Below are positions 33,957 through 36,900 of a stretch of 64,000 nt of DNA, piece by piece; position 1 is the first letter of the stretch; each line of letters opens with the position of its first letter. Where the stretch lies: assembly GCF_056712565.1 (NCBI RefSeq), contig NZ_CM160072.1; one strand, given 5' to 3'. The position numbers were made by a program.

Positions 33957-36900
33957 TTATAAACGAAAATGATTACTCCTCAGACCCATTACGATTGATG
34001 GGAGAGTGTAACCGTTCTTACGTAGCTCCCCGATTGGGAGCATTGTTAGGTAGCCAAATTCGGCTAACTGAGGTTCAGATTGAACCTGCTGTCAACTACG
34101 ACAAGCCCGCGCATTATACATACTTAACCACCGAACGCAAGCGTATTGCTAGTAAAGTAAACAGCCTTTGGGTTATCTCTCAAGTTCGTTCAGCGCATTT
34201 TTGACACGCTCTCTTAAACCGGCTTTCTCGTCGCTTTCTTCTACAGTATTTTCTTCGTCTTCAGAAGAAGAGGGGGCATTCTCAACCGCGACGCCTGGTT
34301 CATCTTCCTCCTCGACGGATTCGACGACGGGGAGTGGCTGTTTTTTGAAAAAATAGTGTTGTGTTGATTGTTTAAAAGCGGGCGTTTCAGCATCTACAGT
34401 GACTTCTGCTTTTACTATCCAAAGTGCCCATAGCTGCCGGGCATACCCACCAACCAACACCATTCCTGCAAACCACAGGCAAATCAGCAATAAACAAATG
34501 ACATATATTATGGTGCTGTGTTTTTGTCGGGAGAAGATACCAGGGTGACCCGTTTCTTTCTGCTCACGCGCGGCGATATAGAATTCAAACATGTCATTTC
34601 CCCTTCACTGTTGTTTCTGGGGAAATATTTGCTTCATCCCGATATAAGTAGGCACTCTCCCCCGCCACCTGCCAGAGATGTACTAACGTTGAAAAGCCAA
34701 CAACACCGTCAGTTTTCAAGTGATGGCTTTTTTGAAATTGCTTTATTTTTTCTACCAACAAGGGACGCCACTCTGCCGAAGATTCTGTCGAAATATGCAA
34801 TGCGCGGTTTAACATCGTTTCCAGCCAGAGAATCTCTTCCTCGCTGCTATCACGCATAATGGTACTCTCCCCTTCCGGCGACATTTTCCACAACAGAAGA
34901 TAATCACCCGTCCATACCAACTCAAACCATTTATGTGTCAGCGTCCAGGTTTGCTGCCCTACGAGTACATCAACGGTAGCATCACCGACGCGAACGACCA
35001 CAACAGGCAATTTTTTGTCCCCGACTTTAAGCGATGCGATCCAGGGCAAATTCTGATCTACCAATGTTTGTAAAGAAGCGTTCCCACTTTTACATACCAG
35101 CCCCGCTCTTACTGCCTGATCGCACCAGGCCGAATCGGCTGGAACCTCGTACCCCCATACGCCGTATAACACGCTTAGCGCCTCACTATCGCGCATCACC
35201 ACATGAGCAATATCCTTAGTCATATCTTGTTTAACTACTGGCGTTACGGGTATCAGCCACGCAGGAACGGGTAACGGAGCTGTGAAAGAGGACAGCAGTA
35301 GCCAACCACAGGTAAGTGCGAGAATGGTTCCACTCATCACCACGGCAAGCTGCATTTTCCGGGGGCGCTTATCACCTAATACGCGGTAAATCATTCGCCA
35401 TTGTTTTGCAGTGAAAACGCGGGTCTGCTCGGCTTGCTGTAATAAGCTAATTGTTTCGCCGGCAAGCGCCAGCTTTCTGCGATCTCCCCGACATAATAAA
35501 GCTATCCGTTTCAGAACTCTGGCGGTTAAAAGGAGATCGGGCTGGTCAATATTCTGACCTTCAAGGATGCTTGCCTTAAGCTCGTGCTCCGTCAGACGAC
35601 CTGTCGAGACAAGTTCAATGCCCTGTTTTTTAAAATCACGTTCAACTTTTCGATCGGGTCTGCCGATCAGCAAAAATTGACCGTCAGGAATAAGAGATAT
35701 CGCGCGTTGGAGATCATCAAGTATGCGGCGGTGATTCAGGTGAGCATTTTCAATAATAATAAGAGGGCAGCGACTATCAGTTCGATGAAGTGCATGCAGT
35801 AATTGACCCGCCATCTCATCTCGCGTCCAGGCGCTGTCACGGCAGCCCTGTTCAGCCGCATTATCGTCGGTAACGATCCATGCGGCCTTACCTTGCCAGG
35901 AAACAACGAGGCTTAAAGTAATCACACGGCGATGTTTATCTTTTTGTAGTTGCTGCGCCAGCCAGGTTTTTCCACTTCCAGCCTCACCCAACAAATAACA
36001 CAGACGCCAGGTCTGACGTTTCTCACGCAACCAGGAAAGAATGACTTCTCTTCTCGTAGACATAGAACTTCCTGTTTTAATTATTGATTATCCTTAATCA
36101 TAAAAATAATGTATGTATTTATTAATTAAATACATATTACTAATATAAATAAATTTTGCTTGATTCATGCAAGCGGCATTAATACTATTTATACTAACGT
36201 CAATATACAACCCACCCAATCTATTTTATTAGAACATACATCGTGCCCACACTACCTTTCCCTTTCCATCTGGCGAATCATAATAAAGATGCTGCCATCA
36301 ATATATTGATTATATTTATAAGCATAGGGTTGATTATTTTTAATGTGAATTATTTCCATACAACTATAGTTAAAAATGAACAGATCATTAATCAACCAAC
36401 AAATGCATTTCAGTCTGAATTCAGCCTTGCCGCTTTATGGCGCAACGAAAATCATGCTGGGGTAAAAGATGCAAATCCCGTGGCAGTTAATCAGGAAACA
36501 CCTAAGCTCTCTATAGCGCTTAATGGCATTGTACTCACATCGAATGATGAGACTTCTTTTGTCTTAATTAATGAGGGGAACGAACAAAAGCGATACTCCC
36601 TCAACGAAGCCCTTGAGTCAGCGCCGGGAACGTTTATTAGAAAAATAAATAAAACCAGCGTTGTGTTTGAAACTCACGGGCATTACGAAAAAGTAACTCT
36701 CCATCCAGGGCTACCTGACATCATCAAGCAGCCTGATTCGGAAAATCAAAATGTACTCGCCGATTATATTATCGCCACACCTATACGTGATGGAGAACAG
36801 ATATACGGTCTTCGATTGAATCCTCGTAAGGGTCTCAATGCATTTACCACCAGCTTGCTGCAACCTGGGGATATCGCCCTCAGGATCAATAATCTTTCGC

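Follow-up and report, generated by a model that had tools for sequence, protein, structure and literature searches.

What keeps the two gsp operons of Escherichia coli silent in laboratory culture, and where does the responsible DNA begin and end? We examined the 179-bp intergenic spacer between the divergent genes gspA and gspC, at the locus for the alpha type II secretion system (T2SS-alpha), in a stretch of 64,000 nucleotides from contig NZ_CM160072.1 (assembly GCF_056712565.1), hereafter called the window. The analysis led us to conclude that the spacer, together with the first 180 to 220 bp of gspC, is very probably an H-NS-silenced control region shared by gspAB and gspC-O. That H-NS silences the gspA/gspC region is already known, and the region has been studied directly in strain K-12; the present analysis adds how far the AT-rich patch really extends, a negative result on curvature, a promoter-like core found across genera, and weak evidence for maintained symmetry in a palindrome.

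An extremely AT-rich patch in a locus of ordinary composition

The window was identified as E. coli chromosome with a 1.4-kb query around the spacer, which found matches in 3153 of 5426 complete E. coli genomes; the query was 99.9% identical to ATCC 11775 and 97.7% identical to K-12 strains, and the host is accordingly a B2-like strain. The initial annotation had placed the divergent spacer between gspA and gspC, and its boundaries proved exact when compared with the open reading frames (ORFs) and with the annotation by PGAP, which names both genes in ATCC 11775 and in K-12 and leaves 179 bp between them.

The GC content of the spacer was 0.229, compared with 0.488 for gspA and 0.418 for gspC. 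Over the whole window, stretches of 179 bp (63,822 sliding windows) had a mean GC content of 0.501 with a standard deviation of 0.047; the minimum of 0.223 was reached at 36060, and just 10 of these windows were as low as the spacer itself. TpA steps accounted for 16.9% of the dinucleotides in the spacer versus 4.7% window-wide, a 3.6-fold enrichment. Because all 13 further intergenic regions whose composition was determined had a higher GC (0.30 to 0.49, except a 28-bp gap at 0.75), the low GC of the spacer is more than the generic AT-richness of intergenic DNA. Beyond the spacer, GC dropped below 0.32 at two places only, 47598-47859 and, upstream of chiA, 50494-50865.

The spacer had been described as far more AT-rich than its flanks. 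The local AT content bore this out, as the spacer is the lowest-GC zone in the 64 kb, but one of the flanks belongs to the same tract: low GC continued to about 36420, some 180 to 220 bp into gspC, whereas on the gspA side it ended sharply at the start codon. Within codons 1 to 60 of gspC (Table 1), the rare codon ATA was used for 5 of 11 isoleucines. This 5′ stretch of gspC probably makes up the downstream portion of the DNA bound by H-NS. The bodies of the gsp genes, on the other hand, had an ordinary, genome-average GC content of 0.46 to 0.55, so that the AT-rich patch stands out as a local island and not as an operon-wide property.

Published binding of H-NS and RNA polymerase to the same sequence in K-12

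Base for base, the spacer was 100% identical to that of K-12, and experiments performed in K-12 therefore apply to this cis element. There, H-NS and protein occupancy, binding of RNA polymerase and SlyA, low expression and H-NS-dependent silencing have all been demonstrated by others. Curran et al. (2017) described gspC-O as a transcription unit that is cryptic and repressed by H-NS, and marked gspCDEF as H-NS bound in the chromatin immunoprecipitation (ChIP) datasets of Kahramanoglou (MG1655) and Oshima (W3110) (PMC5797941). Among the 78 promoter islands listed by Panyukov and Ozoline (2013) is one of 392 bp at gspA(-)/gspC(+) (K-12 3453428_392). It is H-NS-associated in the ChIP-chip data of both Kahramanoglou and Oshima, and two methods predict a foreign origin for the genes that adjoin it (PMC3661553). 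When placed via a K-12-derived genome in which the spacer lies at 3453421-3453599, the island maps to approximately 36071-36462 of the window, in agreement with the measured extent of the AT-rich tract.

Shimada et al. (2014) found that the RpoD holoenzyme binds the spacer in genomic systematic evolution of ligands by exponential enrichment (SELEX), and flagged the spacer ‘HNS’ (PMC3946193); peaks in or beside the region were obtained with RpoD, RpoS and one further minor-sigma holoenzyme, presumably RpoF. A peak of protein occupancy within the spacer was also recorded in K-12 by high-resolution in vivo protein occupancy display (IPOD-HR). In addition, the gsp operon is stated to be repressed or silenced by H-NS in two genome papers (PMC3446290, PMC3032704). 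The reading of the spacer as an H-NS-bound silenced promoter, proposed from its composition, is thus supported by published work on an identical sequence. The gsp genes are also reportedly derepressed in hns mutants, a result credited in later papers to Francetic et al. (2000).

We propose the following mechanism. Together, the spacer and the beginning of gspC form an extremely AT-rich, TpA-rich patch within a locus of otherwise ordinary GC. H-NS would nucleate on this patch and spread or bridge, and RNA polymerase would be occluded or trapped at overlapping promoter-like sites that point both ways. Both gsp operons would in consequence be silent in laboratory culture, as would the separately AT-rich chiA promoter, and counter-silencers such as SlyA, which binds the exact fragment in vitro, may partly relieve the repression. 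We infer the bridging or trapping geometry from the layout on both sides of the promoters; which of the promoter-like hexamers are used is likewise an inference.

Table 1. Coordinates of the features discussed, in positions of the window
Feature	Position	Strand	Remarks
gspA	34594-36063	minus	489 aa; AAA_22, GspA C39-like and peptidoglycan-binding domains (Pfam); first gene of the gspAB operon
gspA-gspC divergent intergenic spacer	36064-36242		179 bp, GC 0.229
Proximal predicted gspAB sigma-70 promoter, TTAATA-17-TATGAT	36097-36125	minus	-35 at 36125-36120, -10 at 36102-36097
Perfect 10-bp inverted repeat with 5-nt centre, TATGTATTTA-TTAAT-TAAATACATA	36112-36136		
Published candidate SlyA site, TTATATTAGTAA	36137-36148	minus	Published as ‘79 bp upstream of gspA’ (PMC5797941); present at 36137 as the reverse complement TTACTAATATAA
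Predicted gspC-O sigma-70 promoter, TTGATT-17-TACTAT	36160-36188	plus	-35 at 36160-36165, -10 at 36183-36188
Promoter-like element towards gspA, TTGTAT-17-TAGTAT	36182-36210	minus	-35 at 36210-36205, -10 at 36187-36182
gspC	36243-37058	plus	GTG start, 271 aa, T2SSC domain; first gene of gspC-O; secretin gene next
AT-rich continuation, gspC codons 1-60	36243-36420	plus	GC 0.309; GC at third codon positions (GC3) 0.30
Fur-box-like sequence in gspC	36302-36320	minus	14 of 19 consensus bases
chiA-tufA spacer (chiA upstream)	50546-50836	minus	GC 0.299; 50546-50787, GC 0.277

A promoter-like core is conserved across genera

Homologues of GspA were found in L005 (75% identity) and in six more distant loci, L006 to L011 (41 to 45%), all with the gene order gspE, gspD, gspC / gspA, gspB, rpsJ. 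The spacers of these relatives had a GC content of 0.29 to 0.39 versus 0.45 to 0.52 for the respective loci, none being as extreme as that of E. coli. Two further loci with GspA matches of 82% and 89% (L012 and L013) were discarded, as they proved to be E. coli with a truncated gspA and an identical spacer. A GspA scan of genome contigs returned two loci only, L003 and L004, from assemblies labelled Flavobacterium paronense and Alkalicoccobacillus porphyridii, and neither was of use as a cross-species relative: the former carries, in its spacer region, the sequence of E. coli with indel errors of the long-read type, and the latter is a 273-bp contig matching GspA residues 14 to 103 at 100%. 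Both look like E. coli contamination of those assemblies.

For the two operons, Shimada et al. (2014) had proposed the promoters TTAATA-17-TATGAT (gspAB) and TTGATT-17-TACTAT (gspC) (PMC3946193). The former was also found by our promoter scan, and it was kept in E. coli and L005 only; the predicted start from the latter lies near 36195, about 48 nt ahead of the GTG codon. Alignment of the spacers of seven sequences, whose GspA proteins are 41 to 100% identical, revealed a different element. In this alignment, the columns TTG..T and AATA(G/A)TAT.A were invariant and separated by a fixed 17-nt gap, corresponding to a promoter-like element of the general form TTGnnT-17-TA(G/A)TAT that points towards gspA. 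By a simple hexamer score, this element took first place among the sigma-70-like sites towards gspA in L009, L010 and L011, second place in L007 and fourth place in L006. Its -10 hexamer (TAGTAT) overlaps the predicted opposite-strand -10 hexamer of gspC (TACTAT) in a near-symmetric core, TAATACTATT, at 36180-36189. The spacing of the -35 hexamer towards gspC, by comparison, varied from 17 to 19 nt among the genera.

This arrangement recalls the symmetric bidirectional promoters that Warman et al. described (bioRxiv 10.1101/2020.01.31.928960) in that -10-like hexamers on opposite strands overlap, and in its setting of H-NS-bound, probably acquired DNA. It differs in the distance between starts: the predicted starts lie about 20 bp apart here, while theirs are separated by 7 to 25 bp and most often by 18 bp.

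In L010 (3847-3882) and L011 (3847-3887), the gene caller placed the start of gspC some 12 codons upstream of its position in L009 and E. coli. The early ATG sits in the conserved -35-like hexamer, TTGCAT in these loci, and the early start is therefore probably an over-extended call.

A different explanation would make the promoter-like sites themselves, and not H-NS, the cause of the silence. According to Panyukov and Ozoline, promoter islands bind RNA polymerase and form open complexes but yield only short oligonucleotides, and the overlapping sites at gspA/gspC might in the same way hold RNA polymerase in an unproductive or abortive state, with H-NS accompanying the silence and not causing it. 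The membership of the region among the 78 islands, the SELEX peaks for RpoD, RpoS and the further minor-sigma holoenzyme, and the several competing hexamer pairs that simple scanning and scoring found on both strands are all in keeping with such intrinsic silence. Nevertheless, Panyukov and Ozoline themselves attribute the suppression largely to H-NS (PMC3661553), and several papers cite hns-dependent silencing of gsp. Furthermore, consensus promoter matches in our simple scan, which differs from the Panyukov-Ozoline algorithm, numbered 3 versus 2.9 ± 1.8 in shuffled sequences. We consider intrinsic silence rather unlikely. The gsp spacer shares with promoter islands its AT-richness, RNA polymerase binding, H-NS association, scarce transcript and proximity to genes predicted to be acquired; it departs from them in that most islands lie in clearly AT-rich foreign clusters, whereas the bodies of the gsp genes are of average GC and their order is kept across genera.

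Palindromes and binding sites for specific regulators

The initial annotation had pointed to near-palindromes in the spacer, and the sequence that it quoted, tgtatttattaattaaatacat, is real: it was located at 36114-36135, within a perfect 10-bp inverted repeat (Table 1). When the spacer was shuffled 2000 times with its dinucleotides preserved, a perfect short-loop inverted repeat of at least 10 bp arose in 2.1% of the shuffles. The palindrome is thus real, and it exceeds chance expectation for 77% AT DNA modestly, not strongly. It overlaps the -35 hexamer of the proximal predicted gspA promoter. By hand count, L005 keeps 8 of the 10 dyad positions and shows two symmetric co-changes on both arms, a single comparison that is suggestive of maintained dyad symmetry. 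At the same time, the palindrome lies where the spacers of E. coli and L005 are least alike, and no alignment of it was obtained in the more distant relatives. It is a possible site for a dimeric regulator or a possible nucleation site for H-NS or SlyA.

A second inverted repeat, GCTTG-ATTCATG-CAAGC at 36158-36174, overlaps the predicted -35 hexamer of gspC (TTGATT). It is partly kept in L005, and the neighbouring AAGCAA block is conserved across genera. A terminator-like call on the minus strand, consisting of the 5-bp stem of this repeat (GCTTG-N7-CAAGC) followed by AAAATTTATT, was rejected as a terminator; it overlaps the same -35 hexamer.

In published gel shifts, SlyA bound the identical 179-bp fragment with an apparent dissociation constant (Kd) of 50 to 100 nM, and its overproduction raised gspCDEF 2.4-fold (PMC5797941); the primers TC59 and TC60 of that study match both ends of the spacer. 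The candidate site published there matches the SlyA consensus, TTAGCAAGCTAA, at 6 of 12 bases, and a scan of 36040-36430 with this consensus found no site matching at 9 or more of the 12 bases. Consensus scans for Fur, SlyA, IHF, CRP, FNR, ArcA, TyrR, DnaA, Lrp, LexA and Nac gave nothing convincing on the palindrome, and it should be borne in mind that AT-rich consensus matches are untrustworthy in 77% AT DNA, where they arise by chance. Only two sites stood out in the scans, and both lie inside gspC: the Fur-box-like sequence and a perfect match to the IHF consensus (36299-36311) that overlaps it in the AT-rich 5′ part of the gene. Chen et al. (2007) reported that Fur shifts a predicted intragenic gspC oligonucleotide in vitro (PMC2189734), and the Fur-like sequence is probably this intragenic site.

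These observations bear on a second explanation, in which discrete operators and their specific regulators are mainly in charge of the locus (with the palindrome at 36112-36136, the repeat at 36158-36174 and the Fur-like site at 36302-36320 as candidates) and the AT-richness is incidental. The low frequency at which shuffles reached a perfect 10-bp repeat, the partly kept dyad with its symmetric co-changes in L005, and the in vitro binding of SlyA to the fragment and of Fur to the gspC oligonucleotide all speak for operators of this kind. We nonetheless judged the explanation improbable, given that the palindrome is so poorly conserved, that the evidence for its symmetry comes from one comparison, and that no tested consensus fits it convincingly, chance matches being expected in such DNA.

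The spacer is near-invariant where it is present

Among the 3132 E. coli genomes carrying the spacer, 3128 have it at an identity of 99% or higher. Relative to K-12, a difference-free run of 213 bp (36043-36256) covers the whole spacer, in a locus whose genes gspB, gspA, gspC and gspD differ from K-12 by 2.7 to 3.5%; the adjacent ribosomal-protein genes differ by 0.2%. The lack of any difference in the spacer amid a gsp divergence of about 3% suggests, as far as sequence comparison can tell, that the spacer is under constraint.

On the other hand, the gspA-gspC region had no match in 2273 of the 5426 complete E. coli genomes (42%). This is consistent with a published statement that phylogroup B1 strains are without gspA-gspO. 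One match of the region lay on a plasmid, and some genomes had two copies. In strain EC2001 (L014, 6001-6850), the insertion sequence IS1A has taken the place of the entire gspC and of most of the spacer, and in strain B771 (L015, 5095-6812), IS1A lies at the junction between gspA and gspL, both truncated; the two insertions are each accompanied by an adjacent deletion. The transposon DARS1 also landed in the spacer in a published screen. The AT-rich spacer seems to be a hotspot for insertion or deletion.

Could the patch then be no more than the compositional trace of a horizontal acquisition, or a hotspot for insertions, with no regulatory role? The prediction of the neighbouring genes as foreign by two methods, the few strains in which IS1 insertions or deletions end in the spacer, the DARS1 insertion and the absence of the region from 42% of complete genomes would fit this explanation. 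Yet the gsp genes themselves have genome-average GC, the gene order and the promoter-like core are conserved across genera, the spacer is near-invariant within E. coli, and proteins bind it both in vivo and in vitro. Taken together, these data made an origin without regulatory function highly improbable.

Weighing H-NS silencing against discordant results

Several results weigh against H-NS silencing of a shared control region, or at least against parts of it. First, curvature, an older criterion for H-NS-bound DNA, had been put forward as a test of the H-NS interpretation, and here the spacer was unremarkable: its predicted intrinsic curvature, calculated with our own implementation of the Bolshoy-Trifonov wedge model, was at the 53rd percentile of the window for the mean and at the 87th percentile for the maximum. 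Second, the best match to the high-affinity H-NS motif (tCGATAAATT-like) was 8 of 10 bases (TAAATAAATT at 36146), and the density of near-matches was unexceptional. Third, the published H-NS ChIP data were divided, as the datasets of Kahramanoglou and Oshima include the region but H-NS went undetected at the gspA/gspC island in the ChIP-chip dataset of Grainger (PMC3661553). Fourth, the difference-free run over the spacer is only slightly longer than other such runs in the locus, which measure 186 and 177 bp. Fifth, the regulatory experiments were all performed in K-12, none of them in a B2-like background. Finally, mRNA profiling of uropathogenic E. coli (UPEC) in vivo, across several phylogroups, detected expression of gsp components (PMC4128348). 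The word ‘cryptic’ is thus to be taken as referring to laboratory culture, where K-12 papers report the locus silent.

The layout of the region has parallels in other systems. H-NS silences proU, bgl and hilA via upstream and downstream AT-rich elements, and bridging or trapping is usually proposed for them. The AT-rich tract of gsp likewise covers the promoter and the first 180 to 220 bp of gspC, although the bridging geometry there is drawn from layout. Another type II secretion cluster of E. coli, yghJ-pppA-yghG-gspC-M (T2SS-beta) of enterotoxigenic E. coli (ETEC), has a promoter that is repressed by H-NS and StpA. The cluster, on which Yang et al. published in 2007, differs in being a paralogous locus elsewhere on the chromosome, outside the window. 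The closest counterpart is naturally the gspAB/gspC-O region of K-12 (Francetic and Pugsley 1996; Francetic et al. 2000; PMC5797941), which is the same locus with the same flanks, gene order and 179-bp spacer, and from which this strain differs by about 3% in its gsp coding sequences.

chiA and other parts of the locus

In both ATCC 11775 and K-12, the genes follow the order rpsJ, gspB, gspA / gspC to gspO, bfr, bfd, chiA, tufA, and the whole gsp locus spans 34173-46903 of the window. A parallel had been drawn between the gsp spacer and an AT-rich block upstream of chiA (50546-50787), and it held: the block, bounded by the chiA start (50545) on one side and the tufA terminator hairpin (about 50788-50812) on the other, is low in GC (Table 1), and the gene for ChiA is described as a further one silenced by H-NS (PMC5797941). 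An RpoS-holoenzyme SELEX peak lies in the chiA/tufA spacer, and the UPEC study named chiA (yheB) only as a secreted substrate of the gsp components (PMC4128348). The third low-GC patch of the window (47598-47859, minimum 0.274) covers the region upstream of bfd and the 3′ end of chiA, and a bfd-bfr promoter, TTGAAA-17-TATTTT, has been assigned to it by genomic SELEX (PMC3946193).

Two small ORFs in or extending from the spacer, 36094-36219 (minus strand, 41 aa) and 36160-36309 (plus strand, 49 aa), are unannotated in all genomes looked at. An Rfam search of 33500-37500 at a permissive E-value gave no match in the spacer, and folding of a hypothetical 113-nt gspA leader RNA yielded a weak z-score of -2.1.

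Implications

H-NS silencing of the gspA/gspC region stands as a textbook-style case of a cryptic secretion system held silent by this protein, and the present results are mostly confirmation. As the cis element is that of K-12 base for base, the regulatory data from K-12 transfer to this B2-like strain. The silencing patch is local and takes in only the spacer and the beginning of gspC. It is conceivable, though we hold it only tentatively and rather doubt it, that the core TAATACTATT is an ancestral -10 element serving both gspA and gspC, and that the palindrome is the operator of a dimeric regulator that would give the switch-on signal for T2SS-alpha and chitinase secretion. In any case, a search for the natural signal that induces T2SS-alpha would obviously start from the palindrome and the conserved core promoter.

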